From Gloeocapsopsis crepidinum LEGE 06123 (GTDB lineage: Bacteria; Cyanobacteriota; Cyanobacteriia; Cyanobacteriales; Chroococcidiopsidaceae), in contig NZ_JADEWN010000108.1 of NCBI RefSeq assembly GCF_015207655.1, positions 1-8,911 of the forward strand: a stretch of DNA of 8,911 nt. Direction: 5' to 3'. Both the position numbers and the translations under genes were made by a program. The notes under the pieces are model-generated. The model made no database searches and was not told the DNA's origin. It worked only from the letters and a program-made list of their open reading frames with translations. Position 1 is the stretch's first letter. Each line of letters opens with the position of its first letter. Below are positions 133 through 8,911 of the stretch, one piece after another.

Positions 133-351
133 ATGAACCAATTTACAATTGAACTTCCGCCTACGATCTCTAACGACGAAGCAAGACTGCTACTTGCTGC
201 CAAACTGTACGAAGTGGGTAAGCTTTCACTTGGCAAAGCGGCTAAACTTGCAGGTTATTCTAAAGAAACTTTTATCGAACTGATCAGCAAAATGAACATT
301 GCTGTCATTAACTATCCAGCAGCAGAATTGGATCGAGAAATCAGCTTATGA
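133..351 (+). CDS. UPF0175-family antitoxin-like protein, partner of the downstream DUF3368 PIN-like protein
   Basis: From ATG 133 the ORF reads MNQFTIELPPTISNDEARLLLAAKLYEVGKLSLGKAAKLAGYSKETFIELISKMNIAVINY. This carries the UPF0175 hallmark (LA..LYE.GKLSLGKAA.LAG.S...F..L....I.V.NY). Its stop overlaps the next start as ATGA at 348-351. The track's TTG at 79 adds 18 hydrophobic residues and would sit in the end of the adjacent IS, so I prefer ATG 133. Confidence 0.85.
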   Translation: MNQFTIELPPTISNDEARLLLAAKLYEVGKLSLGKAAKLAGYSKETFIELISKMNIAVINYPAAELDREISL

Positions 352-803
352 GTCACCCTGCTGTCACTGATAGCACCTGTCTTATTGGATTAGAACGAAT
401 TCAACGACTTGATATTTTGCCACAGGTATTCTCACCTGTGATGATTCCGTTTGCTGTTCAGGCTGAAGTTGGAATTACAACAACTTGGCTTACGGTTTTA
501 ACAGTAAAAAATCGGGCAGTTGTCGCCGCGCTCAACACGCAAATAGACAATGGAGAGGCTGAAGCAATTGCCTTAGCCTTAGAAATTGGCAACGTTTTTG
601 CGATTTTAGATGATTTGACGGCTCGTCGCGTTGCAACTCAACTGGGTTTAAAAGTCATTGGCACGATTGGAGTGTTACTCCGCGCCAAACAACAAGGGAT
701 AATTTCGGAAATCAGACCGTTGCTGATTGCCCTTGATCAAGCCGATTTTCGGGTTTCTGTGGCGCTAGTTCATCGGGCGTTGGAGATTGCAGGTGAATTA
801 TAA
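348..803 (+). CDS. DUF3368 PIN-like nuclease domain protein (VapC-like toxin candidate)
   Basis: The 151-aa ORF has an N-terminal VTDSTCLIGLERIQRLDIL, a central GEAEAIALALE and LDDLTARRVATQLGLKVIGTIGVLLRAKQQG. This is the typical DUF3368 layout, and the family is regularly paired with UPF0175. It shares a 4-nt ATGA overlap with the upstream gene. Confidence 0.85.
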   Translation: MSHPAVTDSTCLIGLERIQRLDILPQVFSPVMIPFAVQAEVGITTTWLTVLTVKNRAVVAALNTQIDNGEAEAIALALEIGNVFAILDDLTARRVATQLGLKVIGTIGVLLRAKQQGIISEIRPLLIALDQADFRVSVALVHRALEIAGEL

Positions 804-897: not shown

Positions 898-2973
898 ATG
901 CACTTTGAGATTATCCATAAGCCCACTTTTACCAACCAATTGCTCGCGATTCCCAAAGAGCGAGTGATGCAAATTTTGGAAAAGATTGAGGTTTTACGCA
1001 ACGATCCCAAACCGCACGGTAGCTTAAAGAAAAAACTGCACGGATACAAAGGCGATATTTACCGCCTGCGTTCTGGCGACTACCGCATTATTTATACTTA
1101 TGGTGACGGTTGGGTGGCGCTGCTAGGCGTGGATGCGCGTAAAGACATTTATAAAGGTGACAAACTGATCGCCGAAACAACAGAAATTGATGTCACGGCT
1201 TTTGCAGATCTCGATGAACTACTCACGCCGGAAAAAGCACCTGCAATTGCATTGCAATCATCGCCGGCAGAAATTTTACCCGTTGAACTCACCGCAGAAT
1301 TACTCGAACGTTTATTGATTCCCAAAGCTTGCTTTGCCGCATTGCTCGGCTGTCGTACTTTTGATGACTTACTTCTTGCCAATATTCCTGATGCGGTACG
1401 CAATCGCCTCTTTGACTGTATCACCGCACCCAACTTTGACCGAGTTCTCGACCAACCAAGTTTTGTTACAGGCGACGCGGATGCGTTACTGCGCTTCAAA
1501 GAAGGAGATTTGTTAGGTTTTTTACTCAAACTCAATCCCGAACAAGAAAAATTTGTCACTTGGGCAATCAAGGCATCAGGTCCTACACTGCTTAAAGGCA
1601 GCCCTGGCACGGGTAAAAGTACCGTTGCGCTCTACCGTACTCGTGAAATTCTACAACAGCTACAAGCAAATGGCGTGCATCGTCCGCGCATTCTGTTTAC
1701 AACTTATACCAATGCTCTCGTTACTTTCTCGGAGCAACTGCTACAACAGCTTTTAGGCAACAATGTGCAGTTTGTTGAGGTGAAAACCGCCGATGCGTTG
1801 ATGTACGCGCAGGTTTGTGCGGCGACAGGACAGCCAAAGATTGCTACGAATAAAGATTTGCTCAAATTGATTCGTCAAGCGATTGGCGACGCGATCGCCA
1901 CATTAGAAGGAAATGTCTTGCAACAGCAAGCGCAACGATTAACATTGCAACGGCTACAGCCAGAATATCTACTTGAAGAACTCACCGAAGTTATTGATGC
2001 TAGAGGAATTGACACACTAGAAGCGTATCAAGCAACTCCGCGTATAGGGCGTAGCATTCCGCTCAACAAAATTCAGCGACAAGCAATTTGGAATTTACGC
2101 CAGCACTGCAATCGCGCGATTGCAAGTCAAGGTATTGAAACCTGGGCGCAACTGAGATCGCGTGCGCTCTCAATTTGGCAAAGTCAGCCAACGTTGCTTT
2201 ACGATGCAGTAATTGTCGATGAGGCGCAAGACCTCAGTCCGGTGGCACTGCGGTTTTTGGTGCAACTGTGTCGCGAACCCAATCGTTTATTCGTTACTGC
2301 TGATGCGAATCAATCAATTTACGGTAGTAGTTTTCGCTGGAGTGAGGTTCATCAATCGCTTAGCTTTGTGGGACGCACGGGCATTCTCAAAATCAATCAC
2401 CGCACCACCAAAGAAATTGCCGAAGCAGCGCATTCTTATTTGCAAGAGGGCAAACTCGATGAAGACGACATCCAACAACAATACATCCATACCGGACCAT
2501 CTCCGGCAGTACGCGCAGTGAGCGATCGCGCGGCGGAGGGCGAACTATTGGCGCAATTTTGTCGCACAGCAGCGCGGGAATTTCGCCTCGGTTTAAGCGC
2601 TTGTGCGATCTTGGTTCCTACTGAAAAAATCGGTAAAAACATTGCAGGGCAATTAAGCTACCTAGGAATTGCGGCTCAGTTTATGACGAGTAAAGACCTC
2701 AATCTCAATTACAACGGAGTCAAAGTGCTACCGATCAAAGCTGCCAAAGGATTAGAGTTTCCGATAGTGGCGATCGCAGGCTTTTTAGATTCGTATTCTG
2801 CGATTCCTAAAGGTACACCAATGGAAGCCTCTGCAGAAATTCTGACTCGCGAACGGCGATCGCTCTATGTGGCAATGACAAGAGCAATGCGCGCGCTTTT
2901 GGTAATCGTGCCAGCGCAGCAACCCTCATTGCTCTTACAAAATTTCGCTCCTCATCTGTGGAATCTCGTATGA
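898..2973 (+). CDS. RelE/ParE-fold toxin-like domain fused to a compact UvrD-like (SF1) helicase / P-loop ATPase
   Basis: In the 691-aa ORF, aa 1-~88 show RelE/ParE/HigB hallmarks (KKKLHGYKGDIYRLRSGDYRIIYTY...GVDARKDIYK). Walker A GSPGTGKST is at 1597-1623 and motif II VIVDEAQDL at 2209-2235. Also present are FVTADANQSIY, a KINHRTT motif and a C-terminal SF1 motif, YVAMTRA, at 2866-2886. The stop overlaps the next ATG (ATGA at 2970-2973). Confidence 0.85.
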   Translation: MHFEIIHKPTFTNQLLAIPKERVMQILEKIEVLRNDPKPHGSLKKKLHGYKGDIYRLRSGDYRIIYTYGDGWVALLGVDARKDIYKGDKLIAETTEIDVTAFADLDELLTPEKAPAIALQSSPAEILPVELTAELLERLLIPKACFAALLGCRTFDDLLLANIPDAVRNRLFDCITAPNFDRVLDQPSFVTGDADALLRFKEGDLLGFLLKLNPEQEKFVTWAIKASGPTLLKGSPGTGKSTVALYRTREILQQLQANGVHRPRILFTTYTNALVTFSEQLLQQLLGNNVQFVEVKTADALMYAQVCAATGQPKIATNKDLLKLIRQAIGDAIATLEGNVLQQQAQRLTLQRLQPEYLLEELTEVIDARGIDTLEAYQATPRIGRSIPLNKIQRQAIWNLRQHCNRAIASQGIETWAQLRSRALSIWQSQPTLLYDAVIVDEAQDLSPVALRFLVQLCREPNRLFVTADANQSIYGSSFRWSEVHQSLSFVGRTGILKINHRTTKEIAEAAHSYLQEGKLDEDDIQQQYIHTGPSPAVRAVSDRAAEGELLAQFCRTAAREFRLGLSACAILVPTEKIGKNIAGQLSYLGIAAQFMTSKDLNLNYNGVKVLPIKAAKGLEFPIVAIAGFLDSYSAIPKGTPMEASAEILTRERRSLYVAMTRAMRALLVIVPAQQPSLLLQNFAPHLWNLV

Positions 2974-5132
2974 AGATTATCAAGCTTCCAGCAATTTTAC
3001 CTGGCGATCTGGACTTGGCAATTGTTAATCAACAGTTGCGCTCACGCACTGCCCAACTCGACTGGAGCGCTGTAATTTCAGCCCCAGAACAGTATCTTGC
3101 TGTATTGCTGGCAGGATTGGATCTTGATGACGATGCCGAAGTTCTCGACTGTGAAACTAGCACGTTATCCGATACGATTGCGCAGAAAGTTGCGCAGGTA
3201 CTGCTATCATCTGGTCAACCTCATATCGAATCCAAACCAACGGTTAATGCGATCGCACCGGCGCTTTGGCAGCAACCCAAATCGATTCCGCAACAAGATA
3301 ACGTTGCAGTGCCAAGTGTTTTTGAGGTTGAACACAACAATGAGCCAATTCTCCAACCACCTTCGTACTACCAAATTCGCGCCGAACTCGAACAAGCGGT
3401 ATTAGCAGATCTTTTAGGTCCCGCAGGCGGGGAATACGAAGAAATTGATGAAGCACGAGTGAGCGATCGCTATTTGGTTGGCTTAATAGCTCCTTTACAC
3501 CGCCGCCAGCGTTTGGAACAATCAGATGATGATGCGTTACAAACCGAGGAACTTACGACGGATCAAACCGGAAGCGTTGATCTTAGTATTGAACAACTCG
3601 ACGAACTTGCCGTAAATGGCGTAGGCACAAGCGACGATGGGACAACCGAACCCACCAATCCAACAGCTGAAACGATGTTTCCGTCTTCGATGGGGATGAG
3701 CTTTTGCGTGAGTGGAACTGCCACAGCAATGAGAATCACAGCCGGATGGGGACAATACAAGCGGATTGAAAGTGAATATCTAAAAAACGCAGCAGGGAAA
3801 GCAAAACAAATTTGGCGCAGACATCCAATTGTGGGGCAGTCACCAGCGATTTCGCTCACCGCTGGCAAAATTGCGCCTTGGCGCATCGATCCCGAACACG
3901 AGGTATATGTGCGCGGTCAAATTCGGGCGTGTGGTGATGATTGGATCGTGAGTTTATTTTTAGTCAATGAGCAACGCGAACCGCAGCGATCTCGCGATCA
4001 AGCATGGTTGTTTCAGCCTGAACTGAGCGTCGAATCGGCGACAAATCAAAAAGATATTTTTATTCGTAGAGTGCAAGTGCGATCACCAGGCAAATGTGAC
4101 CCTGGGCAGTATGCCGAAGAACAACTTATGGAGATGCTTTACCGACGTCACGTTGAATTTGCAATAGGACATGGAATCGGCGTTCATGCAGAGGTAGCTG
4201 CTGGAAGGACAGACCGCGCAGTTCGTCTTTGTACTCGCGTTGTTCCTGCATATGAGGTTCCTAAAACTGATGCACCGACATTCGATGAAGCTGGAACTGA
4301 ACTCGTTTTAGATATGAAGGAGTTAGCCAATTCCACGGCTGCGGAGTTGCTCGCAAAGCTAAATCCGCTTGTGCGTGCCTATGCAGATTGGATTGCCATA
4401 CAGAAAAATCGCGTTGCTCAGCTGCACGAATATGCGGACACTGCTAACGATGCCCTTGCAAATTGCGCTCGTGCCAAGGCGCGAATTCAGTCAGGGTTAG
4501 ATTTATTGCAAGCGGATGCGAAAGCACTTGCCGCCTTCCAATTTATGAATCAGGCAATGTGGCAGCAACGAGTTCATTCGCTGTATGCCGAACAGAAGCG
4601 ACGCGGTGAAGACGTGGAAATTAGCATAATTGACGTTGCTCAAAATCGTTCTTGGCGACCGTTTCAAGTTGCATTTATCTTGCTGAATTTACCAAGTATT
4701 ACAGATTTAGCGCACCCAGATCGCTGTCACGAAACTGCTGCGATCGCCGATCTGCTTTGGTTCCCGACAGGAGGTGGTAAAACCGAAGCTTACTTAGGTT
4801 TAACTGCTTACACAATTGGACTGCGACGATTGCAAGGAGCGATCGCCGGACGTTCGGGAGAATCAGGCGTAGCTGTATTAATGCGCTATACATTACGCTT
4901 GCTTACCCTCCAGCAATTCCAACGCGCAACCGCGCTGATTTGTGCCTGCGAAGCGATTCGCCGCGAACATCCTACCAAGTGGGGTAATGAACCATTTCGG
5001 ATAAGCTTATGGGTCGGTCAAAAAACAACTCCTAACCGCACCGAACAAAGCGAGGAATTTCTCAAACAAAAACTCGGACAATACCAATCAACGAGCAGCG
5101 GCTCTCCGCATCAAGTTTGGACGTATTGGTGA
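2970..5132 (+). pseudogene. N-terminal ~60% or less of a large SF2 helicase (DrmA/DruE-like, DUF1998-associated type), 3'-truncated by an IS630 fragment
   Basis: The frame is open from GTG 2958 or ATG 2970, and the ATGA overlap with the upstream stop favours 2970. About 590 aa of non-helicase sequence precede motif I, FPTGGGKTEAYLG (4761-4799), and a motif Ia-like MRYTLRLLTLQQFQRA. No DExH motif II or later helicase motifs follow. At about 5110 a different frame becomes IS630 transposase sequence, and the terminal residues VWTYW-stop are IS-derived. The family name is recalled from motif shape, not searched. Confidence 0.7.
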
Positions 5133-5601
5133 AGTGAGACGGGCATGGGTTCCCCCTGGGATTCGTCCAAGTGTTGCCAAGCAAATCGTGCGAGAATATA
5201 TTTATGCTTTTGTGGCGGTTGCACCTGCACTGGGAGAAATGACTGCTTTGGTGCTACCTTATGCCAACACTGAGATGATGAATCTGTTCTTGGAGCAGGT
5301 GGCAATTGAGTTTGCTGACTACTTCATCATTATTCAGGTAGATGGAGCTACTTACCATCACTCTGCTGGGCTAGTTGTACCTGAAAATATCCGGCTAATT
5401 GAGCAGCCTGCTCGTTCTCCAGAACTCAATCCAACTGAGCACATTTGGGAAGAGGTTAGAGAGAAGCATTTTTACAACAAAGTCTTCGACTCACTTGATG
5501 CTGTTACAGATGTCCTTTGCCAAGGCTTGCAGGAGTTAATGCTAGCTCCTGCAAAGCTGTCTTCCATGACCTACTTCCCTCATCTGAGAATTGTTCTTTA
5601 G
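5110..5601 (+). pseudogene. IS630-family (Tc1/mariner-like DDE) transposase, C-terminal fragment only
   Basis: Frame +1 reads IKFGRIGEVRRAWVPPGIRP continuously across the nominal GTG at 5134. It is followed by IIIQVDGATYHHS and QPARSPELNPTEHIWEEVREK, the classic IS630 DDE_3 C-terminal signature (SPELNP.E..W). The HTH N-terminal half is absent and no upstream start exists. Confidence 0.85.
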
Positions 5602-5604
5602 AAC

Positions 5605-5632
5605 GCGGTTTAGTATGAGTTAGCTAAACCGC
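5605..5632. terminator. Hairpin between convergent genes (possible bidirectional terminator or IS630-end structure)
   Basis: GCGGTTTAG (5605-5613) pairs perfectly with CTAAACCGC (5624-5632) around a 10-nt loop. It sits between the IS630 fragment stop (5599-5601) and the end of the minus-strand nuclease ORF, overlapping that ORF's last codons. There is no clear U-tract. Confidence 0.3.
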
Positions 5633-6083
5633 TCTTTAGCAATTCTTCCTGCAAAGACTTTTCTTGACCATCTTTCAGGGCTACGAATACTTCCGCCACC
5701 GTTCGACCGTAACGATCCTTTTCAATCGGCATCAGTATAATATTGTTACCCGCAGAAGCAACGAGCGATCGCGCGAAGTCGCGGCTTTCATAACCTAGCG
5801 GCTGATCCAGTTCGGGCGCATCAATGCCACACAATCGAATTTTTTGCTTCCCCCAATTTCCCTGAACTGTAAGAGTATCGCCATCGTGAATGTTAATAAC
5901 TTGGTACTCCTCAGATTGAGGAAGTTCTCGCCTTTCAGGAGCATTAACTATTTTATTACTACGTTCTTCACCATCTAACTTTGCACTAGGAGCAACAAAC
6001 TTTGGATAAATAACAAAGGCAATAACAAGAGCGATCGCTACGAGGGGTAAACCATTAACTAAATACCTTATCAAACTCTTCAT
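5610..6083 (-). CDS. Staphylococcal-nuclease (SNase/thermonuclease)-like protein with an N-terminal membrane anchor or signal; possibly 3'-truncated
   Basis: The 157-aa ORF has a hydrophobic N-terminus (LPLVAIALVIAFVIY). The SNase core motifs IHDGDTLTV, KIRLCGIDAPE and DRYGRTVAEV are present. The ORF ends at GLANSY-stop, whereas homologues as I recall them continue for roughly 30 more residues after GLA. Confidence 0.8.
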   Translation of the reverse strand: MKSLIRYLVNGLPLVAIALVIAFVIYPKFVAPSAKLDGEERSNKIVNAPERRELPQSEEYQVINIHDGDTLTVQGNWGKQKIRLCGIDAPELDQPLGYESRDFARSLVASAGNNIILMPIEKDRYGRTVAEVFVALKDGQEKSLQEELLKSGLANSY

Positions 6084-6306
6084 ATTTAAATCCGTATCTT
6101 CCGTAGTGTCGCAGGAGTGAGTGCAGCGTTAGTTTGGTGGAGGCTGCTGAGGGATTGAATGTGCAGTAGCAGCCTCGCTAAGTAAATTATTCCCTTCTGG
6201 TAAGAAATCAAATCATCGTGAACAATAAAAAAAGGGTGTGGTCAAAACCAGTTGGTAGAGAGGCAAGCTGCATTGGAAATAGCTAGGAGGTTGAAACTGC
6301 TTCTTT

Positions 6307-7005
6307 TTGTGGCAGTGTCACAGAAGGACTATTGCTCAACTACCAAAAGCCGCCATGAAGACCGGATATACTGATATAGTTGTTGAAATGAGCCAGAAGC
6401 TGTGCCAAGCGCTGTTGAAAAAAGAATCAGACTTAGCGCAAAAAGTCCATGAACTCGATGGCGAAGTTAACAAAATACTGCGGCGGGTAGGATTTTTTGT
6501 CGTCTCTCTAGTTTTAGCCGAACTTAGCACTTAGGTGACAAAAGAGGCAAGGGCAACAGGTCTAACCATACATCGAGCGTCTCGAATAAAATACTCTTCC
6601 CTGTTTGGCGTTAATGATAAACTCCACGCAACTGATAAAGGACTCGTAAAGCTAGTCATTTGGCAACTCAATAGCTATCACGGTCAAGGGCAAGAGCGCA
6701 TTGCTAATTTGTCTGGGTATTTAAAACGTTTCTCTAATGCCGTGCATTATGAAAAATTCCGCGCCCAAGGTCTTCCCATCGGTTCGGGGGAAGTTGAAAG
6801 CGCTCACCGCTATATTCCCCAAAAGCGCCTCAAAATTCCAGGAACCACTTGGCATCCAGATACAGTTAATCCGATGCTGGCTTTACGCATATTCGGGCTA
6901 ATGATTGGTGGGAGGATTTCTGGACGAAACAATCAGCTTCCTACTAGAACCCTATTCTACGAAAAGCCCTTTCGTGTAGTTTGTCCTACCTGCGTTACTG
7001 CTTAA
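6307..7005 (+). pseudogene. ISKra4-family transposase pseudogene (in-frame stop, internal deletion, frameshift)
   Basis: Two ORFs share one frame and are separated by TAG at 6532-6534. The C-terminal part carries the ISKra4 signature GLPIGSGEVESAHRYIPQKRLKIPGTTWHPDTVNPMLALR. The expected ending RANDWWEDFW is readable only in another frame from 6894, with a stop at 6945-6947. The combined length of about 230 aa is roughly half a normal transposase of this family, so the catalytic core is deleted. Confidence 0.7.
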
Positions 7006-7096
7006 AAAGCGTATTATAGATTTCACCGGAAAATCCGGAAAACTGTACAGTAGGGTTGTATATTATTCTGTCACTACTAAGTTTAAGTGTGAGCTT

Positions 7097-7555
7097 ATGG
7101 TAGAACCTCTAACGGCAGCAGTCATTGTCTCTTTATTTTTCTCAGAGGCAATTAAAGAAGGTGGAAAGGCTTTAGGTAAGGGCGTTGCTGATAAATTTAC
7201 TGAACTGGTAAATGCCATCCAGGAAAAATTGAGGGCAGAGGGAACAGAAGGGCTGCTGCTCCGAGCAGAAAACCAACCAACAGAAGCAAATAAGGCAAAG
7301 CTACAGGATGAGCTACAAACCCAAATGGATGCTGATGAGCGGTTTGCTCATAAACTCAAGGAAATAGTCGAGCAACTACAAGCACAAGATGAAAAGGTAC
7401 GTCAGGTAGTGCTGAGTGAGATTGAATTAACTGGCGATTTGGAAGCAAAAGACATCAGCCAGAAAGCAACGCGGAGTGGTTCAGTCGAGCAGGAAATGGT
7501 TACAGGAGTAAAAGCTCAAAACATTGATGTGGGCAACTTAAACCAAGAAGCTTAA
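7097..7555 (+). CDS. 152-aa helical protein with a hydrophobic N-terminal helix and a C-terminal G/N/Q-rich motif; candidate effector/adaptor of the downstream NB-ARC protein (Bell/HeLo-like hypothesis)
   Basis: This clean ORF ends 4 nt before the NB-ARC start. The N-terminus is MVEPLTAAVIVSLFFSEAIKEGGKALGKGV, followed by charged coiled-coil-like sequence. C-terminal VKAQNIDVGNLNQ matches VQAGNITVGNITQ at the N-terminus of the next protein. Confidence is for it being a real gene. The functional call is hypothesis-level. Confidence 0.65.
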   Translation: MVEPLTAAVIVSLFFSEAIKEGGKALGKGVADKFTELVNAIQEKLRAEGTEGLLLRAENQPTEANKAKLQDELQTQMDADERFAHKLKEIVEQLQAQDEKVRQVVLSEIELTGDLEAKDISQKATRSGSVEQEMVTGVKAQNIDVGNLNQEA

Positions 7556-7559
7556 AGCG

Positions 7560-8789
7560 ATGGCTAGCCAGCAAGATCCTCAATTAGTTGTCCAAAAAAT
7601 CTTTGAGAATGTTCAGGCAGGTAATATCACAGTCGGGAATATTACTCAGATTTATCAAATCATTAGCAATTTGGGTAATCTTCCTCAACCAACAGGGTTT
7701 CCTCAAAATATTCCCCCCAGTAACACAGATAAGTTTGTTGGGCGCGGAAAAGAATTAGAACGCCTCCACCAACAGCTACAACGAAATAATGAGGTAATAA
7801 TTGCTGCTGTTGAAGGCATGGGGGGAGTTGGGAAAACAGAGCTAGCCATCCAGTATTCGCTGCTCCACTTACAGTTGGACTCTTACCCAGGCGGAATCTG
7901 CTGGCTAACAGCAAGAGAGGAAGATATTGGTCTGCAAATCGTAGAATTTGCTAGGACAGATTTGGGTTTGCAACCTCCAGGAGATTTAGAGTTACCTCAA
8001 CGCGTCCGTTGGTGCTGGAAGCATTGGCATCAGGGGAATAAGCTAATAGTTGTGGATGATGTTAAGGATTACGGACAAATTAAGCCTTTCCTACCACCAC
8101 AACCATCCCAATTTAAGGTACTTATTACAACCCGACTCAAGCTAGATTTAGCTGGTTCTCTGTTTCTGGAGCTTTTGGATGAGACAGCCGCATTAGAACT
8201 ATTAGCTCAATTGGTTGGAGAAGAAAAGCTCAACCAAAAGTTAGCAACAGGAAAAGAACTTTGTCAGCGTTTGGGCTACTTGCCCCTAGCGTTGCAATTG
8301 GTAGGGCGATACGTGCAGAAACGAAGGATAACTTTAGCTGAAATGCTGCGCCGATTGGAGTCGAAAGGGCTGGAGCATAGTTCTTTGGTAGTAGATAAAA
8401 ATGACCGCACTTGGACGCTAAATATCAAACAGGGGGTAGCAGCAGCCTTTGAGTTAAGTTGGGAAGAGTTAAATCAGCCAGCCCAACAGTTAGGGTGTTT
8501 GCTAAGTTTATTCGCTTTGACTCCGATTCCTTGGTCACTAGTAGAAAGCGCTGCTTTTGAGCAAGGCTCAGAAGTACTGGAAGATGCCAGAGTAGAATTA
8601 GAAAATTTGCACTTGCTACAGGGTGAGGATACTTATCAATTACATCAGCTAATTCGAGATTTCTTGAGAAATAAGCAAAAGGACTTAGCTGCTGCGAACG
8701 AACAGAAGTATAACTTTTGCCAAGCAATCGTAGAAGTGGCGAAGGAAGTTCCTCAAAGCCCTACTCAGCAAGAAATTACTACACTATAG
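7560..8789 (+). CDS. NB-ARC (STAND/NLR-type) NTPase with an N-terminal short motif and no C-terminal sensor repeats (probably truncated by IS630 insertion)
   Basis: FVGRGKELERL precedes the P-loop GMGGVGKT (7815-7838). Walker B LIVVDDV is at 8043-8063, KVLITTR is RNBS-B-like, and the GLPL-type motif GYLPLAL is at 8274-8294. The ORF stops at 8787-8789, in the region where related cyanobacterial NB-ARC-TPR proteins continue into TPR repeats. Confidence 0.9.
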   Translation: MASQQDPQLVVQKIFENVQAGNITVGNITQIYQIISNLGNLPQPTGFPQNIPPSNTDKFVGRGKELERLHQQLQRNNEVIIAAVEGMGGVGKTELAIQYSLLHLQLDSYPGGICWLTAREEDIGLQIVEFARTDLGLQPPGDLELPQRVRWCWKHWHQGNKLIVVDDVKDYGQIKPFLPPQPSQFKVLITTRLKLDLAGSLFLELLDETAALELLAQLVGEEKLNQKLATGKELCQRLGYLPLALQLVGRYVQKRRITLAEMLRRLESKGLEHSSLVVDKNDRTWTLNIKQGVAAAFELSWEELNQPAQQLGCLLSLFALTPIPWSLVESAAFEQGSEVLEDARVELENLHLLQGEDTYQLHQLIRDFLRNKQKDLAAANEQKYNFCQAIVEVAKEVPQSPTQQEITTL

Positions 8790-8848
8790 CCTTACACAAT
8801 CAGATTAGGACGTTATTATAGGGGCAGAGGAGAGTTGAGGAAGTGCCC

Positions 8849-8911
8849 ATGCCCGCCCCCTACAGTTACGACCTGCGCCGCAAAGCGCTGGCGGCAGTGA
8901 AACACGGCGAA
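8849..8911 (+). CDS. IS630-family transposase, N-terminal 21 codons; partial CDS that runs off the right edge
   Basis: ATG at 8849 gives MPAPYSYDLRRKALAAVKHGE. The YS.DLR.K...A...G start is typical of the IS630-family HTH N-terminus. The segment is 41/63 G+C, far richer than the flanking DNA. Confidence 0.6.
   Translation, partial: MPAPYSYDLRRKALAAVKHGE

Follow-up and report, generated by a model that had tools for sequence, protein, structure and literature searches.

Related amyloid-signalling systems

In the fungal HET-S/NWD2 system, the NLR carries one N-terminal motif of the HRAM type, and the partner effector, which has a pore-forming HeLo domain, carries two C-terminal pseudo-repeats of about 21 aa. 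The pseudo-repeats of HET-S stack as a two-rung beta-solenoid, and the hydrophobic helix at its N-terminus is freed for attack on the membrane. A similar arrangement is found in bacteria, where Bell-type effectors are paired with NLRs by shared BASS motifs; 91% of such pairs are collinear and 57% are separated by no more than 10 bp (Dyrka et al. 2020, 10.1101/2020.01.06.895854). In the BASS4 class (bass_04 / cya_02 and nlr_13 of the same study), collinear genes a few nt apart encode the Bell protein and an NB-ARC partner in Nostocales hosts, and a repeat of the motif on the Bell side has already been noted (PMC8086366).

Experimental proof that a Bell-type effector/BASS pair acts in antiphage abortive infection comes from Bab/Agp of E. 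coli (BASS11; PDB 9H9V; Ibarlosa et al. 2024, 10.1101/2024.11.07.622273). Bab is a small helical effector with a MEPIS-type first helix and a C-terminal motif that matches the N-terminus of the adjacent sensor, and the pair is located in a defence island. The MEPIS motif has been reported for Bab, Bell and Avast2, and as functionally important in Bab and Avast2 (10.1101/2024.11.07.622273).

The gene pair described here was found in a window of 8,911 nt (the whole stretch of DNA analysed). It very likely belongs to the BASS4 class of Bell-effector/NLR amyloid-signalling pairs already published for filamentous cyanobacteria. Its own NLR gene has been cut by an IS630 insertion at about nt 8785, probably leaving a remnant.

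The gene pair and its shared motif

The features of the locus are listed in Table 1. The two genes are on the same strand; as described in the initial annotation, the gap between them is 4 nt and the second encodes an NB-ARC domain (Pfam PF00931, E 1.1e-17, NLR aa 64–272). A scan of nt 6900–8911 for promoters and terminators returned nothing exceeding shuffle expectation.

Table 1. Coordinates of the effector gene, the NLR gene, their motifs and the inserted element within the window.
Feature	Position (strand)	Description
Effector gene	7097..7555 (+)	152-aa Bell-type protein; helical domain ~aa 1–97 and C-terminal BASS4 region aa 101–150
Hydrophobic helix 1, 'MEPIS'-type start MVEPLTAAVIVSLFFSEAIK	7097..7156 (+)	Presumed membrane-inserting element
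BASS4 pseudo-repeat R1, effector aa 101–122 VRQVVLSEIELTGDLEAKDISQ	7397..7462 (+)	Hydrophobic pattern as in R2 and the NLR motif
BASS4 pseudo-repeat R2, effector aa 130–150 VEQEMVTGVKAQNIDVGNLNQ	7484..7546 (+)	10/21 identical to the NLR motif
NLR gene, truncated	7560..8789 (+)	409 aa; BASS4 motif, NB-ARC NTPase and helical ARC region, TPR repeats gone
NLR-side BASS4 motif, NLR aa 10–30 VVQKIFENVQAGNITVGNITQ	7587..7649 (+)	Orthologues' NLR-side strings in Table S2
IS630-family element, 5' end	8786..8911 (+)	Supplies TAG stop 8787–8789; transposase ORF from 8849 (MPAPYSYDLRRKALAAVKHGE...)

Effector aa 133–150 (EMVTGVKAQNIDVGNLNQ, nt 7493–7546) align, as had been reported, without gaps to NLR aa 13–30 (KIFENVQAGNITVGNITQ, nt 7596–7649); 8 of 18 residues are identical. 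Three more positions on the N-terminal side belong to the match (V130/V10, Q132/Q12), and over this longer stretch the hydrophobic/polar pattern is identical. Comparing the final 40 aa of the effector with the initial 40 aa of the NLR gave a best ungapped BLOSUM62 score of 46, a value reached by none of 3000 composition-preserving shuffles (mean 20.6, sd 4.2, maximum 42). All eight identical residues are encoded by different synonymous codons, and the motif DNA is identical at 25 of 54 nt, or 19 of 39 nt in the 13-codon core (earlier counted as 20/39). Because the codon differs at every identical residue, the similarity lies at the protein level rather than the DNA level, in agreement with the original reading that it does not reflect a recent duplication.

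[quoted passage not shown] Compared with most orthologues, the NLR motif of the window lacks one residue (AGNIT versus AEGNIT), which accounts for its gapless register with R2. I-D-V-G-N-L-N, the core of R2, and I-T-V-G-N-I-T, that of the NLR motif, resemble the (I/V)-Q-(I/V)-G-x-x-N pattern of RHIM, fungal PP and BASS3 motifs, but lack the central Q of the RHIM tetrad, and published clustering places the orthologues of the window pair in BASS4 rather than BASS3.

The effector protein

Homologues of the effector (n = 215) are mostly 152 aa long and mostly from Nostocales, and the family comprises 259 representatives at 50% identity. The family domain also occurs fused with TIR_2, CHAT, EAD4 and serine-esterase domains. 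Searches of the effector against Pfam, NCBIfam and PADLOC assigned it to no family, the sole match being a sub-threshold one to the DUF4164 coiled-coil. The consensus N-terminus, MEPxTxxAxxIxxLxFxEAxKExGK, corresponds to MVEPLT... in the window protein, and the Kyte–Doolittle maximum (15-mer) falls at aa 5–19, bearing out the hydrophobic first helix noted at the outset. The protein combines the attributes of Bell effectors, namely a helical bundle of about 100 aa, a hydrophobic helix 1 and an acidic residue at position 2–3 (MEPIS-type), and its orthologues are in the Bell set of the original authors.

Two AlphaFold2 models of the effector were compared. With 33 close homologues in the alignment, aa 110–152 were disordered (pLDDT < 50), while with 81 diverse sequences this tail was ordered into strands. 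The latter model has five helices across aa 7–97, helix 1 being aa 7–19, followed by three strands in R1 (101–104, 114–117 and 120–123; block-mean pLDDT 79–88) and three in R2 (130–133, 142–145 and 148–151). The strands of the two repeats are at equivalent positions and in register (block-mean pLDDT 74–90 over R1 and R2). The stacking of R1 and R2 as a two-rung unit is a prediction for the monomer and says nothing about fibrils; the low pLDDT of the same region in the shallower alignment indicates that the order comes from co-evolution and need not describe the resting protein.

Foldseek searches of the PDB with the two models gave nothing at E below 1 (best E 2.7 and 1.1), the second model returning generic helical matches only; no HeLo, MLKL 4HB or Babybell domain was among the matches, and a profile search of PDB sequences with the effector was empty. 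The locus has the HET-s-type layout, with two effector pseudo-repeats and one NLR repeat of common pattern, predicted to stack in register. It differs from HET-S/NWD2 in its bacterial host, in the partner architecture (NB-ARC and TPR versus NACHT and WD40) and in a helical domain without detectable sequence or Foldseek similarity to HeLo; the R1–R2 linker is 7 aa, compared with 6–15 aa in HRAM motifs. The differences from Bab/Agp are the motif family, the length of the helical domain (~97 aa here, ~80 aa in Babybell) and the single motif copy of Bab.

Orthologous pairs and assignment to BASS4

Orthologous pairs with published motif annotations come from Scytonema NIES-4073 (BAZ20404.1/BAZ20405.1) and Nostoc 'Peltigera membranacea cyanobiont' 232 (OYE01065.1/OYE01066.1), whose effectors are 80–82% identical to that of the window. 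Both pairs are listed as bass_04, member motif cya_02, in Supplementary Table 2 of the 2020 preprint (10.1101/2020.01.06.895854). The motif strings and positions determined here for these two loci were the same as in that table, and the window motif differs from theirs at a few positions only. By orthology to these entries, the window pair almost certainly belongs to BASS4. The proposal of a Bell-type effector/NLR pair with matched BASS-type termini therefore stands, while the suggestion that the motif might represent a new family does not. The published HMMs also match an R1-type repeat in BBD58559.1 and BAZ86411.1 (Table S2, 10.1101/2020.01.06.895854).

Matched termini were kept in related pairs, of which 27 are Nostocales-like and 5 more distant, and the pairs of Pseudanabaena, Phormidesmis, Microcoleus and Calothrix were each matched to their own version of the motif. 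R1 was retained in all orthologues. Partner-specific similarity was seen for R2, which scored 40.3 against its own NLR partner and 34.5 against non-partners (0/20000 permutations). This was unchanged when the most extreme pair (L042) was left out (0/20000), and in the Nostocales-like pairs alone the count was 51/20000. In the same comparison, R1 showed no partner-specific similarity to the NLRs.

Some of the orthologous NLRs have an extra N-terminal segment, GGMQAIQGDNN, which is absent from the published BASS table; its one other match was weak and lay inside a pentapeptide-repeat protein.

Truncation of the NLR gene

The window pair has the shared terminal motif, collinear adjacency and NB-ARC partner of Bell/BASS–NLR pairs, but its NLR lacks the C-terminal TPR or WD repeats, and no TPR was found by Pfam in the 409-aa ORF. 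Full-length orthologous NLRs checked with Pfam consist of NB-ARC and TPR, and NLR aa 1–409 align to orthologues of 750–1100 aa that carry on into TPR_10/TPR_12 arrays. Both DNA and protein homology to the orthologues stop at about nt 8785, where the IS630-family element begins. The 21-aa transposase peptide encoded from nt 8849 is 81–86% identical to annotated IS630 transposases, and the inserted DNA (8786–8911) has a GC content of 65%, compared with 44% for the gene pair. The contig of an independent assembly ends at nt 8839. As the break in the NLR coincides with the insertion, the TPR repeats were lost secondarily in this copy, a difference from the published BASS4 pairs.

Another IS630 fragment lies at nt 5134–5601. 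No terminal inverted repeat common to it and the element start at 8790–8911 was found, and the two are probably different members of the family. A search for the second IS630 in 45 loci found no copy.

The surroundings of the pair are decayed defence genes (a truncated DISARM DrmA and a GajB-like helicase) and IS fragments, with a PDC-S70 pair and a nuclease as further neighbours. PADLOC had no model for either gene of the pair, and comparison of the whole window with plasmids gave drmA in Oscillatoria as the sole match.

With the TPR sensor missing from its ORF, the NLR is most likely an inactivated remnant beside an intact effector gene, and this copy of the BASS4 pair is probably inactive. 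The remainder of the NLR might continue past the IS, outside the window, and for this reason we infer the loss of function rather than observe it. That the pair still works is unlikely, although it has some points in its favour. The BASS4 motif and NB-ARC domain without a sensor could serve as a seed, either primed or active constitutively at a low level, or could act with a TPR part encoded past the IS or elsewhere. The effector retains an undamaged ORF of the family's usual 152 aa, the NB-ARC domain has a readable and intact P-loop (GMGGVGKT) and Walker B motif (LIVVDD), and short NLR ORFs are also present at several orthologous loci (L004, 566 aa; L005, 532 aa; L017, 574 aa). Against this, the repeat domain of known NLRs gives both sensing and autoinhibition, and the full-length orthologues carry TPR arrays. 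A constitutively active seed beside an intact killer should be counter-selected, and the surrounding genes are visibly decayed.

Proposed mechanism

By analogy, HET-S/NWD2 and Bab/Agp suggest how the intact orthologues may work. A cue, probably from phage or another non-self source, would be sensed by the NLR's TPR array, upon which the NB-ARC domain would oligomerise and bring its N-terminal BASS4 motifs together as a cross-beta template. This template would turn R1 and R2 of the effector into a two-rung, beta-solenoid-like fold. Such refolding would detach helix 1, hydrophobic and of MEPIS type, from the rest of the bundle, and the freed helix would go to the membrane and kill the cell, by abortive infection or regulated cell death. 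Amyloid templating by BASS4 is reasonably likely on this analogy; the membrane attack and the trigger are likewise read across from the two model systems, and may be similar here. The analogy is needed because the tests found in the literature, which showed the amyloid mechanism, concern BASS1 and BASS3 (10.1101/2020.01.06.895854) and BASS11 (10.1101/2024.11.07.622273), and not BASS4.

The same gap in coverage leaves some room for a stoichiometric, non-amyloid interaction, in which the resting effector already holds R1 and R2 as a two-rung unit and the NLR motif docks as a third rung, giving an adaptor-like recruitment. The ordered, in-register strands of the second effector model would fit such docking, but the low pLDDT of this region in the first model does not. 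Every BASS and fungal motif tested so far forms fibrils and propagates as a prion, and the enrichment in Q, N, G, V and I with alternating hydrophobic residues is typical of these amyloid motifs, making simple docking quite improbable.

Two further variants, likewise improbable and not favoured by the evidence, are that R1 and R2 form an intramolecular unit in advance that is capped or extended by the NLR motif in place of classical prion templating and, separately, that IS-truncated NLRs persist as regulators of an intact effector, whether as seeds or as dominant-negative caps. The AlphaFold2 monomer model, the intact effector next to a cut NLR and the recurring short NLR ORFs at orthologous loci are compatible with these variants. 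If true, either one would break with the HET-S/NWD2 paradigm.

A short motif rich in N, Q, G and V could arise by chance or as low-complexity sequence, or be left over from recent duplication of DNA or gene conversion between neighbours, and would then carry no signalling meaning. These readings are refuted by the shuffle test, by the differing codons and by conservation of the arrangement across Nostocales and in the pairs of Pseudanabaena, Phormidesmis, Microcoleus and Calothrix, each with its own matched motif version.

Significance

Animals (RHIM), fungi (HET-S/NWD2) and bacteria (BASS) all use amyloid templating to signal from an immune receptor to a pore-forming executioner, so that each well-defined bacterial pair is a useful point of comparison. 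The family, the motif class, the Bell-side repeat and the orthologues of the present pair have all been published, and the locus therefore adds nothing categorically new. The common register of R1, R2 and the NLR motif, together with the predicted two-rung model, provides a concrete basis for the design of peptides and proline-scan mutants. The NLR gene cut by IS630, next to an intact effector gene in an eroded defence island, offers a small natural example of the decay of a cell-death module.

A shared motif in adjacent genes

The small Bell-type effector (Bell being a small helical, membrane-targeting domain) is followed directly by an NLR with an NB-ARC domain at aa 64-272 (Pfam PF00931, E 1.1e-17), in which the P-loop GMGGVGKT and the Walker B sequence LIVVDD are visible by eye. 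The alignment of effector aa 133-150 with NLR aa 13-30, proposed in the initial annotation, is present, with 8 of 18 positions identical, and extends three residues further N-terminally (V130-Q150 against V10-Q30, 10 of 21 identical) with an identical hydrophobic/polar pattern. When the last 40 aa of the effector were compared without gaps with the first 40 aa of the NLR, the highest BLOSUM62 score was 46; composition-preserving shuffles gave 20.6 +/- 4.2 and none of 3000 reached 46, ruling out a chance match. Every residue identical between the two motifs is specified by a different codon, as had been claimed, which rules out a recent duplication, and identity at the nucleotide level is just 25 of 54 (19 of 39 in the 13-codon core, rather than the 20 first reported). 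The similarity is conservation at the protein level, in agreement with the earlier reading.

Features of the gene pair, its surroundings and related loci
Feature	Position	Strand	Details
UPF0175 + DUF3368 overlapping gene pair	79-351, 348-803	+	PADLOC candidate system PDC-S70, E 2e-38 for larger protein
UvrD-type helicase, 691 aa	898-2973	+	best PADLOC matches NERD+UvrD and GajB
DISARM helicase DrmA, truncated	2958-5132	+	NCBIfam DISARM_DrmAS E 1.2e-178; PADLOC DrmA E 1.4e-129
IS630 transposase, C-terminal half (3' part)	5134-5601	+	profile 161-298 of 299
SNase-type nuclease with N-terminal hydrophobic segment	5610-6083	-	Pfam match stops at profile position 76/107
ISKra4-family transposase, C-terminal fragment	6535-7005	+	profile 341-414 of 422; ends 91 nt upstream of effector gene
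Effector ORF	7097-7555	+	152 aa
R1	effector aa 101-122	+	VRQVVLSEIELTGDLEAKDISQ; same hydrophobic register as R2 and NLR motif
R2	effector aa 130-150	+	C-terminal BASS4 copy
NLR ORF	7560-8789	+	409 aa; collinear with effector ORF, gap 4 nt
IS630 transposase start	8849-8911	+	ORF begins MPAPYSYDLRRKALAAVKHGE; 81-86% identical to N-termini of annotated IS630-family transposases
Extra NLR N-terminal segment	L008 3429-3515; L009 7579-7665; L010 7864-7950; L038 5169-5255		Q/N/G-rich

Assignment to BASS4

The effector has 215 homologues at E <= 1e-3; nearly all are 152 aa long and come from Nostoc, Tolypothrix, Scytonema, Brasilonema and relatives. An exhaustive profile search gave a family of 259 representatives at 50% identity, in which conservation is strongest at the N-terminal MVEPLTAAVIVSLFFSEAIKEGGK and in the C-terminal motif. 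Among 44 genomic loci encoding an effector relative (L numbers), the effector gene is followed within 400 nt by the start of a long ORF in 33, at a gap of exactly 4 nt in 15 cases, and 31 of these 33 ORFs look like an NLR whose N-terminus bears a matching motif. Two of the examined loci, including L010 (BAZ20404.1/BAZ20405.1 of Scytonema sp. NIES-4073), are listed in Supplementary Table 2 of Dyrka et al. 2020 (bioRxiv 10.1101/2020.01.06.895854) as bass_04, member motif cya_02, one of the bacterial amyloid signalling motif (BASS) families. The effectors of these tabulated pairs share 82% and 80% identity with that of the window. Since the two loci show exactly the motif strings and residue numbering that the table gives, the window pair can be assigned by orthology to the published BASS4 class. 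The initial interpretation as an amyloid-signalling effector/NLR pair was correct, its orthologues being tabulated as bass_04 Bell/NLR pairs; the suggested new motif family was not borne out, as these orthologues already belong to BASS4. The Bell/NLR pair is already known, orthologues of both genes appearing in the 2020 paper.

Two repeats in the effector tail

In BBD58559.1 and BAZ86411.1 the BASS4 profile is tabulated at aa 97-122 or 103-122, not at the extreme C-terminus (10.1101/2020.01.06.895854). The window effector carries two BASS4 pseudo-repeats, R1 and R2, separated by a linker of 7 residues (KATRSGS). R1 has few identities (3/21 with R2, 4/21 with the NLR motif), with the hydrophobic register exactly equal, and it is kept in all orthologues. 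The pair has this arrangement, a doubled pseudo-repeat in the effector and a single copy in the NLR, in common with HET-s, and frequent repetition of BASS4 in the Bell protein, comparable to HET-s, has already been remarked on (PMC8086366).

The effector tail was disordered (pLDDT below 50) when AlphaFold2 (AF2) was supplied with 33 close homologues. With 81 diverse family members, aa 101-151 were predicted as short strands at equivalent positions in R1 and R2 (101-104/130-133, 114-117/142-145 and 120-123/148-151), and 10-residue block means of pLDDT across the strand region were 74-90. This predicted tail would fit a two-rung solenoid. For the helical domain, the fold comparison proposed in the initial annotation did not bring out a relation to HeLo, MLKL or Babybell: Foldseek searches with both AF2 models gave nothing with E below 1, and searching PDB sequences with a profile returned no match. 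In the MEPIS region the family consensus is MEPxT, and the window reads MVEPLT.

Partner-specific similarity

Every effector tail was scored against every NLR N-terminus in 32 pairs, which are phylogenetically related and so represent fewer than 32 independent events. The mean score of R2 was 40.3 against its own partner and 34.5 against non-partners, and none of 20000 permutations reached the observed mean, so that R2 favours its own partner within orthologous pairs, a check proposed at the outset. The excess persisted when the most extreme pair was removed (L042 from Microcoleus; still 0/20000) and within the 27 Nostocales-like pairs alone (51/20000). R1 showed no excess of own-partner over non-partner scores across the 32 pairs.

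The Microcoleus pair, with an effector terminating in ...GASLKDVQITGGDSSSFNVGNTTQNN and an NLR that opens with ...GASLQDVQVTGGDSSIFSIGNTIQHN, has a score of 104, the mean of its row being 25. Together with L040 (Calothrix), L036 (Pseudanabaena) and L037 (Phormidesmis), it belongs to the same Bell subfamily and has a diverged or different C-terminal motif, matched in each case by its own NLR, which illustrates how the motif is swapped between pairs as a module.

Fusions and unusual relatives

At the family level, fusions occur in the family-search proteins P0188, P0175, P0257, P0258, P0127 and P0128: the helical-plus-BASS4 module is fused behind TIR_2, DUF676 serine esterase and EAD4 domains, a CHAT domain is followed on its C-terminal side by a partial helical-domain match (profile positions 30-99), and the Bell part alone is fused ahead of GUN4-like domains. 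P0188 is possibly a mis-called fusion of two genes, because an internal MEPIT opens its Bell part. P0208 (5768 aa), with 22 separate stretches matching profile positions 86-141 (the helical-domain end and R1), is either a giant repeat protein or possibly an artefact of coiled-coil sequence. In some orthologous NLRs the BASS4 motif is preceded by an additional Q/N/G-rich segment of ~30 aa (QQQAENSTLSGGMQAIQGDNNIQLQGN); this segment is absent from the published Dyrka table and may represent a second, tandem signalling motif. A related string occurs within a 662-aa pentapeptide-repeat membrane protein of L038 (1434-1499, minus strand).

Truncation of the NLR

Over its whole length, the 409-aa ORF aligns to residues 1-409 of longer orthologues. 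The two full-length orthologues checked by Pfam (from L001 and L006; 907 and 1035 aa) have NB-ARC and 9-14 TPR_10/TPR_12 units. The window NLR ends ...PTQQEITTL at the point where orthologues run on ...TPVIPHLAEVA, the TPR array following ~60 residues later. DNA similarity to the orthologues ends at ~nt 8785, where IS630 sequence takes over; the TAG stop (8787-8789) is therefore foreign sequence, and the window copy keeps the BASS4 motif and NTPase but has lost the sensor from this ORF. GC content is 65% in the IS630 start, compared with 44% in the gene pair and a window average of 46%. As no terminal repeat was found in common between this start and the other IS630 fragment of the window, it is probably a different element, perhaps recently acquired. 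A 3274 bp NCBI contig (GCA_051861225.1, JBHYDD010000246.1) is 100% identical to window 5566-8839 and ends within IS630-related sequence at both sides, as expected of assembly breaks at repeats. In L002, L026 and L031 the downstream NLR ORF is just 171-208 aa, so NLR decay beside an intact effector recurs in the family.

Genomic setting

Upstream of the pair lie, in order, the UPF0175/DUF3368 genes, which look like a toxin-antitoxin pair, a UvrD/GajB-like helicase with a weakly ParE-toxin-like N-terminus, DrmA with its IS630 part, the SNase-type nuclease and the ISKra4 fragment. The helicase stop overlaps the drmA start by 16 nt, suggesting that both form one operon. DrmA is cut at profile position 592/1165 and runs straight into the IS630 part; the junction does not coincide with an IS end, making a deletion or rearrangement likely. 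The Pfam match of the nuclease breaks off at the C-terminal end of the protein, right beside the IS630 fragment, and this gene is probably also truncated. The surroundings are an eroded defence island, consistent with an immune role and with decay of the window copy.

Comparison with known systems

BASS1 and BASS3 show prion behaviour and form fibrils, the Bell side being seeded by the NLR side (10.1101/2020.01.06.895854). The BASS11 pair Bab/Agp of E. coli is an abortive-infection system, the killing activity of which is abolished by the helix 1 mutation G11K (10.1101/2024.11.07.622273). In the literature covering BASS1, BASS3 and BASS11, no experimental test of BASS4 was found. By analogy, the published amyloid-signalling mechanism is the best-supported one for intact BASS4 pairs: the TPR array would sense a cue, NB-ARC oligomerisation would bring the BASS4 motifs at the NLR N-termini together as a cross-beta template, R1-R2 of the effector would be converted by it, and this refolding would free the MEPIS-type helix 1 for membrane attack. 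To the known family, the present analysis adds the partner-specific similarity of R2, the two-repeat anatomy of the window protein with its predicted in-register AF2 model, the truncation of the NLR by IS630 and the location of the pair in a decayed defence island.
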